Notes under the pieces: generated by a model
The model's database searches: none
Told to the model about the DNA's origin: nothing
What the model saw: the letters and a program-made list of their open reading frames with translations, nothing else
Assembly: GCA_963725105.1 (NCBI GenBank)
Contig: CAVRXZ010000009.1
Location: 91,363 to 155,362 of the forward strand
Direction: 5' to 3'
DNA length: 64,000 nucleotides
From: an uncultured Acidobacteriota bacterium
GTDB lineage: Bacteria; Acidobacteriota; Vicinamibacteria; Vicinamibacterales; CAVVIG01
Shown: positions 1-25,735 of the stretch, piece by piece
How positions within the stretch are numbered: position 1 is the first letter of the stretch
Layout: the number at the start of each line of letters is the position of its first letter
Position numbers and translations under genes: made by a program

Positions 1-934
1 GCCTGCGACTGACGTCGTCCGCCGCATCGAGCTTCTCTCTGGACTCGGCACAGGCATTGTCACGCTGAGCGGGGGCGAGCCAATGCTGCATCCTCAGCTG
101 GATGACATCGTTTCAGCGATCCGCCAGCGCGGCATGATCGCGACGCTCATCACGAACGGATACCTGCTCACGTCTGATCGGATCGTGCGCCTCAACCGGG
201 CGGGTCTGGACCACCTGCAGATCAGCATCGACAACGTGATGCCTGATGAGGTGTCGAAGAAGAGTCTGAAGGTGCTGGATCGCACCCTTCAGAACCTCGC
301 GCGCCACGCCGAATTCGACGTCACGATCAACGTCGTTGTCGGCAGCACCGTCCGCCGGCCGGATGATGCACTTGTCATTGCGCGGCGGGCGGCGACCCTG
401 GGGTTCTCAACCACAGTCGGCATCATCCATGATCATCATGGGCAACTGCTGCCTCTAAGCGATGAGCAGAGGGGCGTCCTGGATAGGATCGTCGGGCTGG
501 GCGCGTCGCTCTTCGATTTTGCGAATTACAATCGCTTTCAGAAGAACCTGTCGCAGGGGAGACCAAACGCGTGGCTCTGCCGTGCCGGTTCGCGGTATCT
601 CTACGTGTGCGAGGATGGCCTGGTGCACTGGTGCTCGCAGCAGCGTGGCTATCCGGGAATCCCGCTCGAACGTTATGGCCCGGACGATCTCGAACGCGAG
701 TACCACTCGTCCAAACCGTGCGCGCCGTTCTGCACGGTCGGCTGTGTTCATCGAGTCGCGCAACTCGATGAGCTGCGGAACGAGCCGCTCCAGGCCTTGA
801 CCGATTGGTTCGCACCGACCACCGGCGAGAGGAAGATGCCGGTCGGAGTCCGCGCGTTGTCGTGGATGTTCGTCACGAGCCCGCACCGCGACCTCTTTCG
901 AACCGCGGCACAGCGCGTGTTCGGTATCAGATAG
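1..934 (+). CDS. Radical SAM protein with C-terminal SPASM/twitch-like Cys cluster (5' end outside window)
   Basis: Frame is open from base 2: VTLSGGEPMLHP, LITNG and QISID core motifs, then CRAG..C..WC and CAPFCTVGC. The CxxxCxxC motif would lie upstream of the window. Confidence 0.85.
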   Translation, partial: PATDVVRRIELLSGLGTGIVTLSGGEPMLHPQLDDIVSAIRQRGMIATLITNGYLLTSDRIVRLNRAGLDHLQISIDNVMPDEVSKKSLKVLDRTLQNLARHAEFDVTINVVVGSTVRRPDDALVIARRAATLGFSTTVGIIHDHHGQLLPLSDEQRGVLDRIVGLGASLFDFANYNRFQKNLSQGRPNAWLCRAGSRYLYVCEDGLVHWCSQQRGYPGIPLERYGPDDLEREYHSSKPCAPFCTVGCVHRVAQLDELRNEPLQALTDWFAPTTGERKMPVGVRALSWMFVTSPHRDLFRTAAQRVFGIR

Positions 935-945
935 GCCACCCGCAC

Positions 946-1875
<930 letters not shown>

Positions 1876-1908
1876 TCGTTGGTCGTTGGTGTCTTTAGTC
1901 CTCCCGCT

Positions 1909-2362
1909 CTAGCTGCGAGCGGCAGCAAGCGAGCGTTCGATGGGGCCGGCGACCGGCCGCTCGAACGGGATCATGTTGCGCAGGACGGCGATCGACCAGA
2001 CCCCGTTGTCTTTCGTCGCGACCAGGCCCATCGACGAGCGCTTGATTGGGAAGGGCTCCCCGTCAGGCGTACGTAACATCCACGACGCGTCCACGACCGC
2101 GACGTCAGGTCGCACAAACCGAATCTGATCGATCTCCGAGTGCAGACGCGTCCCCTTGAAGAACGTGGCGAGGATTTCGTCGTGGCCACGGGCGATCACG
2201 TCGCGACCGTGCGCTCGCAGGCCCATGATGTTGGTGAAGTCAGCGTCTTCGGCGAAATCCTCGTGCGAGGGTGGCCCCGTCGGCAGCATTCCAGCCTTCC
2301 ACGAACTGATCGACAAGGCTTCTGATGGCGGCATCATCGCTTGCGTTGACGTCAGACTCCAT
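1909..2362 (-). CDS. SgcJ/EcaC (SnoaL-like, DUF4440) family protein, one frameshift
   Basis: GGAGG + ATG 2362 gives MESDVNASDDAAIRSLVDQFVEGWNAADGATLARG. One extra T near 2256 joins this to FAEDADFTNIMG..GRDVI..IRFVRPDVAVV. Confidence 0.75.
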
Positions 2363-2385
2363 GATGTCCTCCCGGCTGGTGGTAT

Positions 2386-2446
2386 ACTTGACACAATGTC
2401 AAGTTCAGGCCGCTATCGTAGCCTGTCACTAGACACAGTGTCAAGT
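2386..2446. promoter_or_regulatory. Two 19-bp palindromic operators, probable TetR sites
   Basis: ACTTGACA-CAA-TGTCAAGT (2386-2404) and ACTAGACA-CAG-TGTCAAGT (2428-2446), 42 bp apart, between the divergent tetR and sgcJ-like genes. Confidence 0.7.
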
Positions 2447-3021
2447 CCAGCTGGGGACCCGGCCACGCGGCGCCGCATCCTCGATGCCACGCTCAGGCTC
2501 GTGGTCAGGCGCGGCGGGGCCGACGTCAGGATGGCCGATGTCGCCCGAGCCGCGCGTGTCTCGCGACAGGCGCTGTATCTGCATTTCGCCGACCGCGCCG
2601 AGCTCTTCACCGCGGTCGTCCGTCACGGAGACGAGCGCCGCGGGCTGACTGCGGCGATTCGGCGGGTCACCGATGCGGCCAGCGCCGTCGACGCGATTCG
2701 GCAGATGGTGGCGCTGCAGGCCGAATTCAATCCGGACATCTGGCCCGTGGCCCGGGCACTTGAAGCGGTCCGGCGTCAGGACGAGGCGGCTGAGCGCTCG
2801 TGGCAGGACCGACTCGAGAATCGCCTTCAAGGATGCCGGGGAATCGTCGCGCGGCTCGCGCAGGAAGGGACCCTGGGCAGGGGCGTCGATCAGGCCGTGG
2901 CCGCCGATCTGCTCTGGACGCTCACGTCGCTGAGGACGTGGGAGGATCTGGTCCTGCAGCGAGGATGGACCGCGGCTCGGTACGAAGAACAGATCACGCG
3001 GCTCTTGCTGATCACGCCTGA
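2438..3021 (+). CDS. TetR/AcrR family regulator (stop probably lost through an indel)
   Basis: TRRRILDAT..VRMADVARAARVSRQALYLHFADRAEL HTH. Coding signal ends near 3020, where a TGA lies one base off-frame. Confidence 0.85.
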
Positions 3022-3040
3022 CAGGCGGGGCGGGATCCCT

Positions 3041-4069
3041 TCAGCCGAGCATGTCCCGCACGAGCGGGACAACCTTCGTCCCGTAGAGCTCGATGCTCGT
3101 CATCAGCTTGTCGTGCGGCAGCGTCCCGTTCGCGTATTTCAGATCGAAACGCGACAGGCCCAGCGCTTTGACGGTGCGGACGATCTTCGCCGCGACCGTC
3201 TGCGGAGATCCCACGAAGAGGGCCCCGTCGCGGGCCTCGCGTTCGAAGTGATCGCGCCCGATGGGCGACCACCCTCGTTCCGATCCGATGCGGTTCATCA
3301 ACACCGCGTAGTGAGGCCACAATTCTTCCTTGGCCTGTTCGTCGGTGGCGGCCACATGACCTGGCGAGTGCGCGCCAATCGGCTGGATCGCCTTGCCGAA
3401 CCGCTCGAGCTGCTCGCGGTAAAGCTCGGAATACGGCGCGAAACGAGCCGGGTTTCCGCCGATGATCGCCAGCATCAGCGGCAGCCCGTAGTGCGCGGCC
3501 CGCGCAACCGATTGCGGGGTCCCGCCGACACCGACCCACGTGTACAGCGTGCCCTCGATCTCCGGATAGACGCGCGCGCCGTTCAGCGGGGCGCGGAGAC
3601 GCCCCTTCCAGGTAATCGGTCCGCCTTTGAGCAATTCAGCAAACAGGTTCAGGTGTTCTTCGAACAGCTCGTCGTAGTTCGCCATGTCGTAGCCGAACAG
3701 CGGATACGACTCCGTGAACGACCCGCGCCCGACGATGATTTCGGCGCGGCCGTTCGAGATCGCGTTCAGCGTGGAGAAGCGCTCGAAGACGCGGACGGGG
3801 TCGTCCGTGCTGAGCACCGTGACCGACGACCCGAGATGGATGCGGGAGGTTCTCGCGGCAATCGCGGCGAGCACGACCTCAGGCGCCGAGACGGAAAAAT
3901 CCGGGCGGTGGTGTTCGCCGACGCCGATGAACGCCAGACCGACCTGATCGGCAAGCTCTCCCTGCTTGACGACATCGCGGACGGCCTGCGCCTGAGACAG
4001 GGGCGCGCCGTCCGCATCGACAGTCGCATCGCCGAACGTATCCAGACCAAGCTCGAGTGGTTGTGTCAT
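3041..4069 (-). CDS. LLM class flavin-dependent oxidoreductase (luciferase-like)
   Basis: GVGEHHRPDF, LGSSVTVLSTDDPVRV and GRGSFTESYPLFG. Confidence 0.92.
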   Translation of the reverse strand: MTQPLELGLDTFGDATVDADGAPLSQAQAVRDVVKQGELADQVGLAFIGVGEHHRPDFSVSAPEVVLAAIAARTSRIHLGSSVTVLSTDDPVRVFERFSTLNAISNGRAEIIVGRGSFTESYPLFGYDMANYDELFEEHLNLFAELLKGGPITWKGRLRAPLNGARVYPEIEGTLYTWVGVGGTPQSVARAAHYGLPLMLAIIGGNPARFAPYSELYREQLERFGKAIQPIGAHSPGHVAATDEQAKEELWPHYAVLMNRIGSERGWSPIGRDHFEREARDGALFVGSPQTVAAKIVRTVKALGLSRFDLKYANGTLPHDKLMTSIELYGTKVVPLVRDMLG

Positions 4070-4090
4070 GAGGGCGCGCCGCGCCGCAGC

Positions 4091-4898
4091 CTACCGGGGC
4101 TTGCGGGCTATCAATTGATGATTCCGACAGTGCCCGACCAGCACCTGCGGATTGTCGTCGGCCTCGCGCATCTGCTCCGCCAGTTGTGCCAGGCGGTCGC
4201 TGGTCAGCAGGCCTTCTTCGATGAGGCTGGGACCTGCTTCGAGGAACGTCCAGCTCCAGAAGTTCTTGTGTGTACCGTTCAGGTAGTGCGGATGATACGC
4301 AGTTGCGTCGAGAACTTCGAAGCCGGCTTCGCGGGCCCACACGTGCAACCGACGGCCGCCTTCGTAGTCCACGCCGCGCTTGCGCCCCGCCGCGAGCGCG
4401 AGATCCCGGTAAGTGTGGTAGCCCTTGGTCTCCGGCTCCGTGTACACCTGCGCGACGTCCACCTCTTCGCAGACCATGATGCCGCCGGGCTTCAGCGCCT
4501 CGCCGATCTTGCGCATGGCGTCGACAGGCCGGTTGAGATGAACCAGAAGCCAGCGCGAGTACCGAGTAGTCGTACGTCGCCGAGGGCAGACCGTGGTCGT
4601 AAATGCTGCGGTTGAGAAACTCGACATTCGTCAGCCCCTCAGCTTTCGCAAGCCGGCTCGCCTCACCGAGATGCTCCTCGCTCAAATCGATTGCCGTGAC
4701 CTGGGCCGCCTGCGTCGCGGCCCAACGCGACACGTAGCCCAGACCGCAACCGAACTCGACATAGCGGTGCTCGCGCCCCAACCCCGCCCGCTGCAACAAG
4801 TTCCGCGTATGCGGATCATGAATTTCGCACAGCATTCGAAGACGGTCGTGCCCGGAGCGTCCGGAAGCGAGCACGTAACGATCGCCAAATGAGGTCAT
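4091..4898 (-). CDS. Class I SAM-dependent methyltransferase, one frameshift near 4563
   Basis: EFGCGLG motif I and IDLS in ORF 3879..4898; YSRWLLVHL and LKPGG in ORF 4091..4627. Removing one G joins the two. Confidence 0.8.
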
Positions 4899-4923
4899 GC
4901 TTTTGAAGTCTAGCAGACCAGCT

Positions 4924-4950
4924 TGTCACGTTCAGGAGCCTTGACTCGTC
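4924..4950 (+). promoter_or_regulatory. ECF41-type promoter
   Basis: TGTCACG-N16-CGTC fits the described ECF41 consensus TGTCACA-N16-CGTC. It lies ahead of an epimerase operon that ends in an ECF41 stub. Confidence 0.7.
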
Positions 4951-4952
4951 CT

Positions 4953-5363
4953 ATGGATATGACCGGAAATCGCAGCCGTGCCTGGACCTGGATGACCGCG
5001 GTTGTTCTCGCGCATCTCCTGGTCGCCATCGTCCACGGCATCGCTCACACCCAGGCTCAGGTACCGCTCTCACCCACGCAGAATCTATTCGTCCTGCTCG
5101 TCATTCTCGCGGGTCCGCTGATTGGACTCGCGCTGACCTGGCCCGCACCGCGTTTCGGGAGCTGGATTGTCGCGATCACCATGGCGGGGGCATTCATTTT
5201 CGGGCTGGTGAATCACTTCGTCTTCGTCAGTCCCGATCACGTCGCTCACGTGGACCCGCACTGGCGGCCGCTGTTCGCAACGACCGCCGTCCTGCTCGCC
5301 GTGCTCGAATTGCTTGGCGCCGTGCTGGCAATCCGTTTCGCCCGAGAGAGGAAGTCGTCATGA
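4953..5363 (+). CDS. Small membrane protein (~4 TM) with His residues
   Basis: Four hydrophobic stretches, HGIAH and NHFVFVSPDHVAH. ATGA overlap with the next gene. Confidence 0.65.
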   Translation: MDMTGNRSRAWTWMTAVVLAHLLVAIVHGIAHTQAQVPLSPTQNLFVLLVILAGPLIGLALTWPAPRFGSWIVAITMAGAFIFGLVNHFVFVSPDHVAHVDPHWRPLFATTAVLLAVLELLGAVLAIRFARERKSS

Positions 5364-6268
5364 ATGTCTTTGTAGCGGGTGGATCTGGGGTCATTGGCAT
5401 TCCCCTCGTACGCGCGCTGGTCGCCGCTGGCCACCAGGTCGGTGCGCTGACGCGCTCGGGAAGCAGACGGGACGAGCTGCGCACGCTTGGCGCTTCCGTA
5501 GTGGTCGCCGACGCGCTGGATCGAGCGGCTCTCATCGCCGCGGTCGAGTCGGCCCATCCTACGCACGTGATTCATCAATTGACTGCCCTTCCCAAGGGCG
5601 GACCGCGCCGGACCCGCGATCTCGAGGCGACGAACCGCCTTCGCATCGACGGCACACGAAACCTGCTCGACGCAGCCATCAAGGCTGGCGCCAGACGATT
5701 CATCGTTGGCTCGTTTGCCATGCTGTCAGAACGAGGCCCCGGATCCGACGCGACGGGCGATGCTGGCGCTGCAGCCGTTCGCTCGATGGAGACCCAAGTG
5801 CTTGACGCGACAACCCGCGGGTCGATTGAAGGCGTCGTGCTCCGCTACGGCATGTTCTACGGTCTCGAAACGGCGTCAACCGTTGCCATGATCGACATGG
5901 TCAGGAAACGACGTTTGCCGGTCGTGCGCGGCGATGCGAGCCAGTTGCCGCTCATCCATCTTGACGATGCGGTGAGCGCGACCGTACGCGCTTTGGATCT
6001 GGCCCCAGCGGGCAGCGCGTACGATATCGTGGACGATCGTGCGGTGAGCATGACGGAGATTGTCGAGGCGCTCGCGAAGTACAGCGGATCGGCGGCGCCG
6101 TTCAGGGTGCCCGCCTGGCTGCCGCGGCTTGTCGCCCCTTACATGGCCCGTGTCGTCTCGATCCGGATGCCACTGTCCAACGCCAAAGCGAAGGCGGAGC
6201 TTGGCTGGCGGCCGAAGTATCCGACGCTGCGCGAGGGCCTCGCGCAGATGTTCCAGCAGGCGGCTTGA
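5360..6268 (+). CDS. NAD-dependent epimerase/dehydratase family protein
   Basis: VFVAGGSGVIG Rossmann motif, VIHQLT, LRYGMFYG, IHLDDA and SNAKAKAELGWRP. Confidence 0.9.
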   Translation: MNVFVAGGSGVIGIPLVRALVAAGHQVGALTRSGSRRDELRTLGASVVVADALDRAALIAAVESAHPTHVIHQLTALPKGGPRRTRDLEATNRLRIDGTRNLLDAAIKAGARRFIVGSFAMLSERGPGSDATGDAGAAAVRSMETQVLDATTRGSIEGVVLRYGMFYGLETASTVAMIDMVRKRRLPVVRGDASQLPLIHLDDAVSATVRALDLAPAGSAYDIVDDRAVSMTEIVEALAKYSGSAAPFRVPAWLPRLVAPYMARVVSIRMPLSNAKAKAELGWRPKYPTLREGLAQMFQQAA

Positions 6269-21123: not shown

Positions 21124-22318
21124 CTAAGGGGTGGGATGGCTCTGGCGGCCATCCACGACGCGTTGCAGCCTGCCCCCGAGGACCATGGCACGGATGTCCT
21201 GGACTGTGCGCGGCCCCGGACGACCGAGTCGTCGTTCAAGCGCGTCGAGGGGTGACATCTCGCCCGCCAGAATCTGAACGGCCCACGAGCGATCAATCTG
21301 GGCCTGCGCTTGTCTGGTCACGTCCACCGCGTCACGTCCCGATTGCGCGGCGACAACGAGCAGCCGGCCTTGCTGCTCGCGTAGTTCAAGAACATGACCG
21401 CTCCGCGCCAGATCCCGACCCTGCGTATCGAAGCTGTGCACAAAGCACGCGTCGCCGGCCTGCGTCTCAGGCGTTGACGTTGCCTCGCGGTCGCCAAGGT
21501 CAAGGCGCGTAATCAGCGCGTCAATGGCCGGCAGGATCTGAATCCATTGCCCTTGCCGGTCCAGTCGGTCTTCGACCGGTCGCAGACAGGCCTGGAGTTC
21601 AGTCCAGATTTGTGCAAACGCGCCCGTGGCGGAGTCTCGCGGCGCGAATACGGGAAGCGGCATGCGGCGAATGGCCATCTGTTCCACGATGCTGGCGTAA
21701 GGGATGTTTCCGGAAAGAAAGACTTCGGGATGATCCACCGACCACTCGCACGATCTCCGGTGCATCGTCTTCCGGCGGTCGACCATGCTGAAGAACATGG
21801 CCAGCCGGGAGGGTGAGTGGGTCCGCTCGGCCCACCTGATCAGTCGTCGCGACCGTCCGCAGCGAAAGTACGGTCGGAATCGTCGGTACGAGGACGACGT
21901 CGGCCGAAGCGATGATGCCCTCGGTCAGCAGCGAGAAGCCGGCCGGACAGTCGAGGAAGACGACGTCAAAGTCGCGACCAAGCGTGTCAAGAAGGGACGG
22001 CAGGAGGCGCTCGGGCTTGCCGATGGACCCGAGAAACCTCTCGAACTTTCGGTAGGCGAAGTCGGCCGGCAGGAGATACAGGTTGTCGTAGTCGGTTTCT
22101 TTGATGGCGGCGCCGAGCGCCTGACCGTCCTCGAGGCTCTGCCTGCCAAACCCGGAGACGTGCGGTCGCACGCGGAAGGCAAAGCTGGAGGCCGCCTGCG
22201 GGTCGAGGTCCCAGAGCAGCGTCTTGAGTCCGGCCGTTGCTGCGAAATAGGAGAGATTGACGGCGGTCGTCGTCTTCCCGACTCCGCCCTTCATGTTGTA
22301 GACCGCGACGATCCTCAA
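21124..22318 (-). CDS. ParA/MinD family ATPase with C-terminal CYTH-like extension, frameshift near 21849
   Basis: KGGVGKTT deviant Walker A, DLDPQ and LDCPA. Removing one base gives VARLIRWAE..FFSMVDRRK. Tail contains SFDTQGRDLARSGHVLELRE. TTG start overlaps the CHAD stop. Confidence 0.85.
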
Positions 22319-23901
22319 AGTGCACGCTCCTGCAGCCACGCCTTCTTGAAGGCGCGCCGACACGCCGATCGCGTCTCCCGCGCGCTGAATTGCGCCAGCT
22401 TCTCGACCACGCGATCGCGCAATTGGTCGCGGCGCTGATGGCTTCGCTCAGCCAACCGCCCGAGCGCAAGCAGGACGCCTCCCGATCCCCCGGATGCAGC
22501 CAACGCACGACCGCATTCGAGCAGCTGCTTCTCTTGCACATGTGCGTCGTTGAAGTCGCCGAGAACCCGCTGAAGCTTTTTCAGGGCACCAAGGATGCGG
22601 GCAAGATCGGCGGCATTGCCGAAGCTCGGCATGACGTCAACCAGATACCGCAGCTTCTTGGCATCAATGCGGAGCGCATGGAGTCGTTCGGGGTCGGTGT
22701 GCACGTCGATGGTTTCAGCGCTGTCGGTAATCCGCCGGCTCAGCCGCCATGCGCGCCGGGCCACAGTTTCCGCCAGCGGGCGTCGTGCGTTTTGCGCTTC
22801 AGGCTCCATCGGGGCTGGCCGCTCGAGAAAAGTCCTCCAGTCCGCAAGCAGACGCTGGTAGCGATCAGTCTCCAGCGCGCTGACGAGCGCGGCATGCCCC
22901 TTTTGCTGCTCTTCGCCCAGGAACGCCATCAGCTGGTCGAGATCCGCATCGGACAACTCTCCACGCCGCTCCCGAAGCCCGAGAACGAGCACATCCAGAT
23001 CGCGCGGCCGGCCGGTGAGGTGACCGAGCCAAGAGAACTCGGCCGCGAAATGCTGCACAACATCAGGCGCGAAGACGTGGCGGATCTGACCGAGCAGCGA
23101 ACGCGTCCGCCTGACGGCCACCCGGAAGTCATGGAGGAATTCGGTGTCCAGGTTGGCACGGAGGCCCGGCTCATTCGCCTCGAGAATACTCAGCAGGGCC
23201 CGATGAATTGTCCGGGCGCCGACATCCGCCTTGACTGTCGGGGCGAGTTCCACGTGAGGTGAAGACATGTCGCCACGCACGGATGCACCCGCCCGGCGCA
23301 GCATCACGTCGAGGAGACCCTCGGGGCACGGCTCCACGCCCGGGCGGCTCTCAATCACGGGCACAAGTCGCTCGTACGCGTCCTTGTAGCCGCGCAGACC
23401 CGTGAGGGTCACCATGGTCGGCAGCGGCCGCCAGGCGCTACGGGCCGTGGGAAGCCGTGCCCGGCCCGCCGCGATCCGAAGTCGCGCCACCGTCTTGTCC
23501 CGATCGTCGAGAATCTCGAGCAGCGACCCGTACTCCTCGGCGTCCGTCTGTGCGAGCAGGCATCGCACACCGATGACAGGGGCCAGGGCTCGCTGGAGAG
23601 GACCCTCCGGAAGATCCCAGGCGAAGCTGACGGGCTCGGTCAGCCGAACTGCCAGTCGGCTTCCTCCGCCGCTCGCCTGCCACTCCACGGTCGAATGGCC
23701 GTTGACGCCCCCTCGGGTTAGGCTCGCTCCCGCGCGCCGAATGCGCCCATCGAACGTATCGAGCACGGTGAACCGATGCCTGGCGATTGGATGATGACGC
23801 GTGGGAAGGAGCGACTGCAGGCTTCTGGTGATCGCCTCCGCCGAAATCTCTTCCGGAACGACGTATGTCGATTCGCTGGCCGCCGAAGGACTCGTGCCCA
23901 T
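22315..23901 (-). CDS. CHAD-domain protein with degenerate N-terminal CYTH-like domain
   Basis: EFLHDFRVAVRRTRS, RDLDV, LHALRIDAKKLRY and LQRVLGDFNDAHV; N-terminal LDTFDGRIRRAG. Confidence 0.92.
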   Translation of the reverse strand: MGTSPSAASESTYVVPEEISAEAITRSLQSLLPTRHHPIARHRFTVLDTFDGRIRRAGASLTRGGVNGHSTVEWQASGGGSRLAVRLTEPVSFAWDLPEGPLQRALAPVIGVRCLLAQTDAEEYGSLLEILDDRDKTVARLRIAAGRARLPTARSAWRPLPTMVTLTGLRGYKDAYERLVPVIESRPGVEPCPEGLLDVMLRRAGASVRGDMSSPHVELAPTVKADVGARTIHRALLSILEANEPGLRANLDTEFLHDFRVAVRRTRSLLGQIRHVFAPDVVQHFAAEFSWLGHLTGRPRDLDVLVLGLRERRGELSDADLDQLMAFLGEEQQKGHAALVSALETDRYQRLLADWRTFLERPAPMEPEAQNARRPLAETVARRAWRLSRRITDSAETIDVHTDPERLHALRIDAKKLRYLVDVMPSFGNAADLARILGALKKLQRVLGDFNDAHVQEKQLLECGRALAASGGSGGVLLALGRLAERSHQRRDQLRDRVVEKLAQFSARETRSACRRAFKKAWLQERAL

Positions 23902-23912
23902 CTTTGCCCGCC

Positions 23913-24323
23913 TCAGGAGCGCAATTCGACGACAGCCTCGAGATGATGGATGAACTTCTTCAGCTCTTTCCGCAGGCGGGCCGAGGCGTCCGGGATGCGC
24001 ATCCAGCGCCGGCGCCGAAGCTTGTCTTCGCGCCAATGGTCGCGCGCGTTGGTGACACGCATCAGATACACGTCAACCCTGCGCGAGCCATCGCTCTTGA
24101 TGTGCAGATAGCGGCCAAGCGGCTTCCGTGGGACCACGCCCCGAAGGCCAGCCTCCTCCTCGGCTTCGCGGATCGCCGCGTCGCGGGGCCGCTCCCCCTC
24201 ATCGACCGATCCCTTCGGCACGATCCAGCCCTTGCCTCCGGATCGCGTCACCAGGGCGACTTCAACTTGCTCCTTGCGGATCCGATAGGCTATGACCGCG
24301 GCCTGCTGAAGTACACGCGGCAT
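23913..24323 (-). CDS. NUDIX hydrolase (DIPP/Ap6A-like subfamily)
   Basis: ALVTR..WIVPKG, Nudix box GERPRDAAIREAEEEAG and RRRRW. Confidence 0.88.
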   Translation of the reverse strand: MPRVLQQAAVIAYRIRKEQVEVALVTRSGGKGWIVPKGSVDEGERPRDAAIREAEEEAGLRGVVPRKPLGRYLHIKSDGSRRVDVYLMRVTNARDHWREDKLRRRRWMRIPDASARLRKELKKFIHHLEAVVELRS

Positions 24324-24451
24324 CCATCCTCCTGGGCTGTGGAGGAAACGTACCAAAGTCGGATCAGAAGTACAAGATGCCAGTTTGAAAAAGTTTACGA
24401 ACGCGTGCGTGTCGGAAAGGGCACGGGAGGAGAAACCGGCCTGGTGCCGAG

Positions 24452-25735
24452 CTATGGGTTCAGTTTCTTGACGAGAATCTTCGAGTGACGCCCGCTCTGT
24501 TCATACTTCTCGCGGCGCGTCGCTGGGAGATCGTCAGGGACGCCTTCCGCGAAACCGCCCTTGGATTGAAAGTACGTGAACGCCTGCGTCGACAAGGCCA
24601 GCAGCTCCTCGAGGTTCAGTTCCCGCGCCTTGTTTTCGACGAACTGAATCAGCTTGCGCCCGATGCCCTGATTCTCGTGTGACGGGCTGACATAGAGACA
24701 GGCCAGCTCGCCCTTGCGCTGCTCGGGATAGACATGCAGGGCGATGCAGGCGACCGGCTGTTTGTCGATTTCGAAAATGGAATAGTCGCCCAGGCTTTTC
24801 TCGATCGTGACCCTCGTGCGCTTGAGCAGCTCGTCCGCTTCCACCGCCTGCTCGGTCAGCAGCTGAATAGCCCGGACGTCCTTCTTTTTTGCCGGCCGGA
24901 TGTGCTGGTACTCGTTTGCATAGATCAACGTCCCGGTGCCCTCGTTCGAAAACACCTCAGCGAGCAGCCCCTCCTCAACCGTACCGTTGATCACGTGGAT
25001 GCGGGGAACGCCGGCTTTGCACGCGGCAGCGGAGTATTGCGCCTTCGACAGCATCTCGTGCGCGAAACCCGCGCCGTTCTGCTGCAGCAGCGACTCCAGC
25101 TCCGGCGCGAGCATTCGCCGAATCAGCTGGCCGCGGTGAATCAACCCGTCCTGCGCCGTGATGAAAATCAACTTGATCGCCTTCAGCGCGTCGGCGACAG
25201 CCACCGCAACGCCGTCGGAGTTCACGCGATAGGTTCTGCCGTCCCCGTCGAAACCGAGCGGCGGGATGACCGGTACGACGCCATGCGAGAGCAGCAGCTG
25301 GAGCAGCTCTTCATCGACCCGCTCGACTTTGCCCGTGTAGAGCTGATCCACTCCCTGAATGATGCCCATGGGATGCGCAATGATGGCGTTCGCCGCTGCC
25401 GCACGAAGGTCGTTGGCCGACAGACCCTCGAGGATTTCGTGAGTCAACCGGTTCGCGGCGGTGAGCGCCAGCGAGAGTGTGGCCGCATCGGTGACCCCAG
25501 CGCCATCGAAACTCGTCGCGGCGATTCCGTTCTGCTCCGCAAGCGCTCTGATCTGCGCCGACGCACCGTGAACGATGGCCACCCGGATGTTCAACGACCA
25601 GAGCAGCGCCACGTCGAGGAGGAGCGTCGCGAAGTTCTCGTCCGTGACGATGGCGCCGTCAATCGCCAGGACGAAGGTCTTCTCACGGAATTGCGGGATG
25701 TACTGCAGGATCCCGCGCAGGTCGGTCAGCTTCAC
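24452..25735 (-). CDS. argA: Amino-acid N-acetyltransferase (AAK + GNAT)
   Basis: YIPQFREKTFVLAIDG, VHGA, LLAEVFSNEGTGT, GELACLYV, QGIG and RHSKIL. Confidence 0.92.
   Translation of the reverse strand: MKLTDLRGILQYIPQFREKTFVLAIDGAIVTDENFATLLLDVALLWSLNIRVAIVHGASAQIRALAEQNGIAATSFDGAGVTDAATLSLALTAANRLTHEILEGLSANDLRAAAANAIIAHPMGIIQGVDQLYTGKVERVDEELLQLLLSHGVVPVIPPLGFDGDGRTYRVNSDGVAVAVADALKAIKLIFITAQDGLIHRGQLIRRMLAPELESLLQQNGAGFAHEMLSKAQYSAAACKAGVPRIHVINGTVEEGLLAEVFSNEGTGTLIYANEYQHIRPAKKKDVRAIQLLTEQAVEADELLKRTRVTIEKSLGDYSIFEIDKQPVACIALHVYPEQRKGELACLYVSPSHENQGIGRKLIQFVENKARELNLEELLALSTQAFTYFQSKGGFAEGVPDDLPATRREKYEQSGRHSKILVKKLNP

Follow-up and report, generated by a model that had tools for sequence, protein, structure and literature searches.

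The locus described here raises the question of whether a ParA-type ATPase could position polyphosphate (polyP) granules. It lies in a 64,000-nucleotide stretch of DNA (the window) from the 74%-complete genome of an uncultured soil acidobacterium, and consists of three closely packed minus-strand genes whose open reading frames (ORFs) and translations identify a DIPP-like NUDIX hydrolase, a protein with a CYTH-fold N-domain followed by a CHAD domain (the CHAD protein), and a ParA/MinD ATPase. By analogy with known ParA-type systems, we infer that this ParA spaces or partitions polyP granules with the CHAD protein as its adaptor, a reading to which we assign a probability of roughly 0.45.

The identity of each protein was characterized from its motifs and nearest relatives. 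The initial annotation had described three co-directional, packed genes with an 11-bp gap and a TTGA overlap, and this arrangement was confirmed from the sequence: 11 nucleotides (ggcgggcaaag) separate the NUDIX stop codon from the CHAD start codon, the TTG start codon of ParA at 22318 overlaps the TGA of the CHAD gene, and an AGGAGG lies a few bases 5' of the NUDIX ATG. The assignments as NUDIX, CHAD and ParA likewise held, with Pfam matches for the first two as given in Table 1 and, for ParA, AAA_31 at 8.2e-31 and CbiA at 6.9e-13. None of the trio proteins matched an NCBIfam model at its cut-off, and no NCBIfam equivalog was found at cut-off for the NUDIX protein. The window motifs NMKGGVGKTT, LLWDLDPQ and VVFLDCPAG fall at positions that are invariant in 124 sequences, and the deviant Walker A with its signature lysine, the switch Asp motif and Walker B are all present. 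The nearest solved ParAs are mycobacterial ParA-like proteins, Thermus Soj, McdA and Helicobacter Soj (3e-18 to 4e-10). Judged by these motifs and relatives, ParA is a Soj/McdA-like deviant-Walker-A ATPase. Membership of a known defence system was considered and rejected, the PADLOC matches being short and partial (3.5e-5 and 5.8e-6).

The CHAD domain scored 172.2 bits against a cut-off of 25.6 for Pfam PF05235, matched the solved CHAD structures 6qv7 and 3e0s at 1.2e-30, and retains the conserved motifs HDFRVAVRRTR and RIDAKKLRY; no other CHAD match was found in the genome. Passages in two papers present CHAD domains as polyP binders located on granules, and CHAD as a polyP-specific module (PMC6537752, PMC9239181). 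The N-domain (residues 1-230) was called CYTH in the initial annotation, a label that stands for the predicted fold but not for the sequence, where Pfam gave no match at E up to 10, CYTH PF01928 included, in any of three orthologues. An AlphaFold2 (AF2) model of the domain (pLDDT confidence score 85.9) found E. coli YgiF (5a60) as its best Foldseek match at E = 2.8e-9, with 55 matches at E <= 1e-3; among the matches listed, TTMs make up the majority, and Mediator Med18/20 chains also occur. The N-domain is therefore predicted, on this model, to adopt a CYTH/TTM fold. Its first strand reads ES.YVV and lacks ExExK, the N-terminal motif of CYTH/TTM proteins, and for this reason we do not call the domain an active triphosphatase. 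YgiF shares the order of CYTH/TTM then CHAD; the window protein differs in having neither a Pfam CYTH match nor an ExExK first strand. No ParA gene is known to us beside ygiF. The CHAD domain of YgiF binds polyP, according to a passage in PMC6537752.

The NUDIX protein has an intact Nudix box (GSVDEGERPRDAAIREAEEEAGL), which fits GX5EX7REUXEEXGU, the general Nudix box pattern. Its top 15 solved relatives are DIPP/NUDT3, 4, 10 or 11 proteins (5e-13 to 2e-11, over residues 6-119), one of the 15 carrying a structural-genomics code name, and the next family follows at 3e-8. By solved matches the protein is thus nearer to DIPP than to MutT or Ap4A hydrolases, in agreement with its earlier description as DIPP-type. 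The likeness to DIPP/Ddp1 enzymes lies in these relatives and the intact box; the window protein differs in being bacterial, with 136 amino acids and roughly 30% identity. Ddp1-type Nudix enzymes are polyphosphatases (passage in PMC6537752, citing Lonetti 2011).

To what extent ParA is tied to CHAD was addressed by a survey of gene neighbourhoods. A pattern scan for the ParA C-terminal domain, with one genome per species, returned 15 loci, including five relatives found earlier, all labelled as metagenome-assembled genomes of Acidobacteriota or Vicinamibacterales. NUDIX, CHAD and ParA are in the same order at 14 of these loci and the fifteenth begins inside ParA at a contig end, so that the order is kept at 14/14 informative loci. 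Beyond the trio, no ORF family in its 7-kb flanks is common to more than 5 of 16 loci. With its conserved gene order, NUDIX-CHAD-ParA is one translationally coupled, self-contained module. A metagenome scan for a long form, in which ParA is fused to CYTH, used three long-form sequences and found 10 loci, five with ParA-CYTH fusions and five, on short contigs, with a CYTH ORF that stands alone or a fragment. At the fusion loci with upstream sequence, a CYTH-like/CHAD gene directly precedes ParA in 4/4 cases and NUDIX precedes CHAD in 3/4.

The pairing of CHAD with ParA extends to more distant members of the phylum. CHAD was found in 87 of 151 sampled Acidobacteriota genomes, a tally that includes three unpublished genomes (G188, G086 and G063) excluded from all other results. 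Eighty of the 95 CHAD places were fetched, leaving out that of the window itself, three in the unpublished genomes and eleven of the weakest. ParA lies directly downstream of CHAD in six of the 80, and all six CHAD proteins have the same type of N-domain; the ParAs of these pairs are short (198-264 amino acids) and lack the C-terminal domain. A seventh pair, in G059, is outside the 80 and was confirmed separately. The CHAD-ParA start/stop overlap is 4 bp in four of the six pairs first fetched, and ppk1, ppk2 or ppx lies within 3 kb in three of the six distant pairs. Searched from the side of ParA, 150 other Acidobacteriota contained nine ParAs scoring 236-312 bits against the clade model, with the next best at 116, and seven of the nine directly follow a CHAD gene. 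The linkage of this ParA clade to CHAD or polyP genes that had been put forward in the initial annotation was thus observed for CHAD (14/14, 4/4 and 7/9), but ppk2, ppx and sixA are not conserved in the trio flanks.

Other polyP genes were also recorded. Besides ppk1 and ppx, the window genome (G000) encodes two ppk2 genes. Outside the window, its contig C21 (24239-27970, minus strand; also L104:5253-9008) encodes Ppx-GppA and polyphosphate kinase 1 in one 1243-amino-acid frame, an apparent ppx-ppk1 fusion, and a 58%-identical ORF of similar length is present in another acidobacterial genome. A compact polyP locus was seen in another acidobacterium at L036 (G155:C153, ~17-6075), with ppk1 on one strand and, on the other, two tandem PPK2 genes, ParA and CYTH-like/CHAD arranged head to tail.

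For a more direct indication of contact between the two proteins, the intact cognate pair of relative G023 (530 + 419 residues) was co-folded with custom alignments. The interface score (ipSAE) was 0.74 (runs 0.75, 0.74 and 0.72), against 0.23 for the best of three controls; 58 of 80 solved complexes come up to that mark, as do 2 of 110 mismatched pairs, a rough comparison only, as our alignments were custom. At least 70% of contacts are shared between the runs, with partner pLDDT of at least 76. In the G023 pair the predicted interface brings residues 82-174 of the CYTH-like domain against residues 30-81 and 218 of the ParA ATPase domain, and the CHAD domain is free of ParA contact. The core of this interface is kept in the six distant pairs, both in the CHAD protein (D134, K138, T139, R/K172, G173 and Y174) and in ParA (G30, R32, R49, V50, I72, D76 and R218). 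No solved ParA-CYTH complex from which the model could have drawn is known to us, although one may exist. Binding between ParA and the CHAD protein, as anticipated in the initial annotation, is therefore predicted, but through the CYTH-like domain and not the CHAD domain; the model supports ParA binding by this route. Like the cargo positioning systems ParABS, McdAB, PpfA and ParC, this ATPase has a dedicated partner gene beside it, whose product is predicted to bind it. Neither the neighbourhood survey nor the co-fold refuted the reading of the initial annotation.

The window ParA also carries a C-terminal domain that the initial annotation had not reported. After a linker of variable length, the last ~105 residues (21148-21456) form a conserved domain whose AF2 core has a pLDDT of ~90. 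Foldseek ranks 1-40 for this model are all TTM/CYTH chains, with E from 2e-3, and in an all-against-all fold search (VIA-wide) the seven best rows are all CYTH/TTM, at Z 8.1-4.4, which is middling by the calibration of the tool. Pfam gave no relevant match on this domain of the window ParA, and hhalign gave a probability of 0.2 for its alignment with the CHAD protein family. Searched against 1.84 billion representatives, the domain profile matched 126 proteins at E <= 1e-3. Among these are proteins of ~225 amino acids (1e-8 to 1e-3), of which four of four tested are Pfam CYTH at 1e-17 to 1e-19; proteins of 508-544 amino acids, of which two of two tested are ParA ATPases; and four further proteins of 242-399 amino acids with no Pfam match. 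The long ParA fusion P0305 itself scores 28.1 bits for Pfam CYTH, against a cut-off of 23.2. These profile matches establish homology of the ParA C-terminal domain to CYTH, in agreement with the fold searches. Run on 400 other Acidobacteriota genomes, the profile gave one weak match only; weak matches in G033, G016 and G241 were followed up by reading their ORFs and set aside, no relative of the module being found. A stand-alone CYTH of the same subfamily (L121:62-1244, on a 1470-nucleotide metagenome contig) follows a PPK2-like ORF.

The domain occurs in three grades of completeness. Stand-alone CYTHs and some long fusions (P0305 and P0323) have the ExExK strand and the acidic C-terminal strands (EVEVE), other long fusions lack ExExK, and in the window lineage, as aligned for the window and G023, the domain is reduced to its central third (HxFDT ... 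LRR; ~100 residues), without the two end segments seen in P0305, P0323 and the stand-alone proteins. A complete closed tunnel was not found in the C-terminal domain of the window ParA. By these grades, this ParA lineage was fused to CYTH and the domain was later cut down. Since gene neighbourhood plays no part in it, the fusion provides independent evidence for a link to polyP.

Among known systems McdA/McdB is, by analogy of its logic, the closest. In both, the gene for an orphan ParA-type ATPase lies beside that of a cargo-binding partner, McdA (6noo) matches the window ParA at 1.5e-11, and the cargo, a storage or metabolic body, is associated with the nucleoid, as is proposed here for polyP granules. 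The module differs in its CYTH-fold/CHAD partner, which is unrelated to McdB, in a predicted contact between domains, in the domain of CYTH origin on ParA and in the inclusion of a hydrolase gene. A conserved folD-ppk-parA-CHAD group, in which parA lies beside a CYTH/CHAD gene with ppk1 adjoining and is kept genus-wide, has been described in Acidithiobacillus; this is another phylum, and the sections cited report neither a NUDIX nor a ParA-CYTH fusion and assign no role to ParA (PMC10892726). AlgP of Pseudomonas aeruginosa has the same proposed outcome, polyP granules spaced evenly on the nucleoid, by the account in PMC9239181 and PMC13052382. AlgP, a DNA binder resembling histone H1, has no ATPase, in contrast to the ParA ATPase here.

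The statement in the initial annotation that no characterised ParA system for polyP granules is known agrees with passages in two recent papers (PMC13052382, PMC13081873). In its relevant section a 2025 review lists AlgP as the only factor for polyP granules, marks ATP dependence as unknown and writes that energy use "remains to be seen" (PMC13052382), while a 2026 study attributes regular granule spacing in a cyanobacterium to a "yet-to-be discovered" mechanism (passage in PMC13081873). In a full-text literature search, no publication was found that puts forward a ParA system for polyP granules, the only related item being the gene-context remark on Acidithiobacillus (PMC10892726). We conclude that, as a ParA-type system, the module is new in its partner, unusual in its ParA-CYTH fusion and probably new in its cargo.

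A mechanism can be outlined from these parts. ParA-type ATPases position cargo through a partner (reviews, including passages in PMC13052382). The CHAD domain would bind polyP, making the CHAD protein the granule adaptor, and the ParA ATPase would dock onto the modelled CYTH-fold N-domain. With ATP bound, dimers of ParA on the nucleoid, a polyanionic matrix, could then pull or space polyP granules through the adaptor in the manner of McdA and carboxysomes. The DIPP-like NUDIX may trim polyP or a related phosphoanhydride, and the CYTH-derived domain of ParA, carried on a flexible linker, may grip polyP or the partner directly as a second point of attachment. In an improbable elaboration, the motor would read its cargo directly, the CYTH-type domain of ParA gripping polyP chain ends or the CYTH fold of the CHAD coat, with polyP, which is a polyanion as DNA is, acting as a matrix for ParA or as a competitor of the nucleoid. 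Were this so, both the track and the cargo of a ParA system would be phosphate polymers.

Several observations weigh against granule positioning by this ParA. No ppk2, ppx or sixA gene is conserved in the flanks of the trio (16 loci), and blastp at 1e-8 found no NUDIX in the 80 CHAD loci. Two of the clade ParAs, L125 (G130) and L126 (G102), have no adjoining CHAD gene, CHAD being elsewhere in each genome. Contact is predicted over a broad surface between domains, which would suit a stable complex no less than a motor-cargo cycle, and a CYTH domain fused to ParA could mean ligand sensing or catalysis. In Synechococcus elongatus, polyP granules are spaced without a ParA-family system, by the account in PMC13081873, so that ParA is not a general requirement. 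Finally, the ParA copy in the window is frame-broken, as described below.

Some of the same observations would be explained if the ATPase were a switch or assembly factor, with a stable ParA/CYTH-CHAD complex controlling the CHAD coat, gating polyP hydrolysis by NUDIX and CYTH, or reporting polyP or triphosphate, and with granules that are not moved. ParB, McdB and MinE contact their ATPase through a short basic N-terminal peptide, and the co-fold shows a domain-domain interface instead. Among ParA/MinD relatives, many do not act as positioning motors (BcsQ, FlhG, Get3/ArsA and NifH), ParA is fused to CYTH in forms of which P0323 and P0305 retain the full ExExK and EVEVE strands, and in the fused forms the hydrolase gene belongs to the unit. 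On the other hand, the nearest solved relatives of ParA are the segregation and positioning ParAs Soj, McdA and ParA (1e-18 to 1e-10), the CYTH part in the window lineage has lost the strands of the catalytic motif, and the first strand of the N-domain of the CHAD protein is without ExExK. We regard a switch or assembly factor as possible but doubtful.

It is quite improbable that the module instead handles a soluble phosphoanhydride, such as triphosphate, short polyP, dinucleoside polyphosphates, or inositol-pyrophosphate-like or nucleotide alarmones, with CHAD and CYTH as ligand binders. The titles of the matched entries indicate that solved TTM/CYTH and DIPP-type NUDIX proteins use small triphosphate or diphosphate substrates, and the stand-alone CYTH beside a PPK2-like ORF is of the subfamily found in ParA. 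A ParA-type ATPase has, however, no obvious role in small-molecule turnover, three of the six distant pairs lie beside polyP kinases or ppx, and CHAD is a polyP-specific granule module in the passages already cited (PMC6537752, PMC9239181).

DNA partition or maintenance of a mobile element, with the CHAD protein in place of ParB, is highly improbable: ParA resembles partition ATPases and the trio stands in differing genomic contexts between genomes, but the CHAD protein has no ParB_N match, a canonical parA adjoins a ParB_N match on contig C21 (the only other ParB_N match of the genome being on C25, likewise outside the window), PADLOC gave no match of note, and no ORF family common to more than 5 of 16 loci means that no mobility gene is conserved, although flank ORFs were not family-scanned and centromere repeats were not searched. 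The absence of parB from the window, noted in the initial annotation, was upheld in that no ParB_N match occurs there; minC and minE were not searched for.

The ParA gene of the window was characterized further at the nucleotide level. While its identity as an ATPase held, it is not the single open frame from 22318 to 21124 that had been annotated: this interval has 1195 bases, which is not a multiple of three. DNA alignment places an extra G at ~21848 (GTCGC[G]ACGACTG) that is missing in all five relatives. Past the insertion, frame 1 is out of frame and stops at 21599, and the remaining ParA continues in the next frame to 21124, so that in the window copy the ATPase fold is split after residue ~157. 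An uninterrupted ParA frame is present in relatives G023, G003, G018 and G002, and the whole protein in relatives has 411-485 amino acids. Among the five aligned relatives, ParA is single-frame in three; one has a shift of its own further downstream in ParA and one a shift in CHAD. A programmed frameshift was rejected, there being no slippery heptamer at the site and no extra base in the aligned relatives. A plot of GC content at third codon positions (GC3) across the window, made for further shifts, missed the known ParA shift, because GC content at first codon positions is as high as GC3 in these genes.

Two origins of the extra base were weighed, a question independent of function. We lean towards an assembly error. 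The correct frame past the shift is open for 246 codons with every invariant residue of the family kept, and the NUDIX and CHAD genes of the window are intact. Across 15 related loci, 5 of 10 long-contig assemblies named contig_N have frame breaks in trio genes, as against 0 of 5 named k141; that the former are long-read data is inferred from assembly contig names and sizes. At the broken loci (L018, L019, L021, L024 and L032) NUDIX, CHAD or ParA is split between frames, with up to five or more breaks per locus and four or more at each of two contig_N loci, and these breaks are probably consensus indel errors. The pattern fits consensus errors of one sequencing type and favours an assembly error in the window too. 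A real but less favoured possibility is that parA has truly been inactivated by a 1-nucleotide insertion, a very recent lesion in a module that is decaying in this host. The extra base is present in the assembled sequence at a site that is not a homopolymer, and across ~8.7 kb of the same assembly neither rpoB nor rpoC is broken, which argues that the assembly is not riddled with indels. Public reads were also consulted: of 23 runs listed, the best contains 0.26 of the sampled words, and among contigs assembled from four runs none spans 21848, two of them ending at 21850 and 21851.

The surroundings of the trio complete the description of the locus. Upstream lies an amino-acid-kinase/GNAT protein (argA-like) and downstream a secreted alpha/beta hydrolase, and in the flank comparison of 16 loci neither is kept beside the trio elsewhere. 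A hairpin directly after the argA-like gene (Table 1) suggests, if only weakly, that the trio may be transcribed on its own. A terminator scan of 3.7 kb gave one site against a mean of 2.6 in shuffled sequences, which is not above chance, and a promoter scan of the trio region found no promoter-like site, fewer than in shuffles.

Table 1. Coordinates of the NUDIX-CHAD-ParA locus within the window.
Feature	Position	Strand	Details and basis
NUDIX hydrolase gene	23913..24323	-	ATG 24323, stop 23913; 136 amino acids plus stop; Pfam NUDIX 4.5e-17
CYTH-fold/CHAD protein gene	22315..23901	-	ATG 23901, TGA 22315; 528 amino acids
Predicted CYTH/TTM-fold N-domain of the CHAD protein, residues 1-230	23212..23901	-	AF2 model and Foldseek
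CHAD domain, residues 234-459	22525..23202	-	Pfam match 2.3e-50
ParA 5' part, frame 1 (Walker A KGGVGKT, DLDPQ, Walker B VVFLDCP)	21849..22318	-	ORF, Pfam
ParA frameshift, one extra base	21848 (ambiguous within GCG 21848-21850)	-	DNA alignment
ParA 3' part, frame 2: last third of ATPase fold (FFSMVDRRK, IPYASIVEQ), helix, variable linker	21457..21847	-	
ParA CYTH-derived C-terminal domain, short tail and stop codon	21124..21456	-	AF2, Foldseek, profile search
Terminator-like hairpin directly after the stop of the argA-like gene (24452-25735)	24436..24450	-	

For the placement and inheritance of polyP granules in bacteria, this module gives a concrete candidate with named interface residues. 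Gene order and predicted binding tie its ParA to polyP-type domains, as does domain fusion in some lineages. An adaptor role for the CHAD protein, if true, would give the CHAD 'phosins' a function beyond polyP binding.

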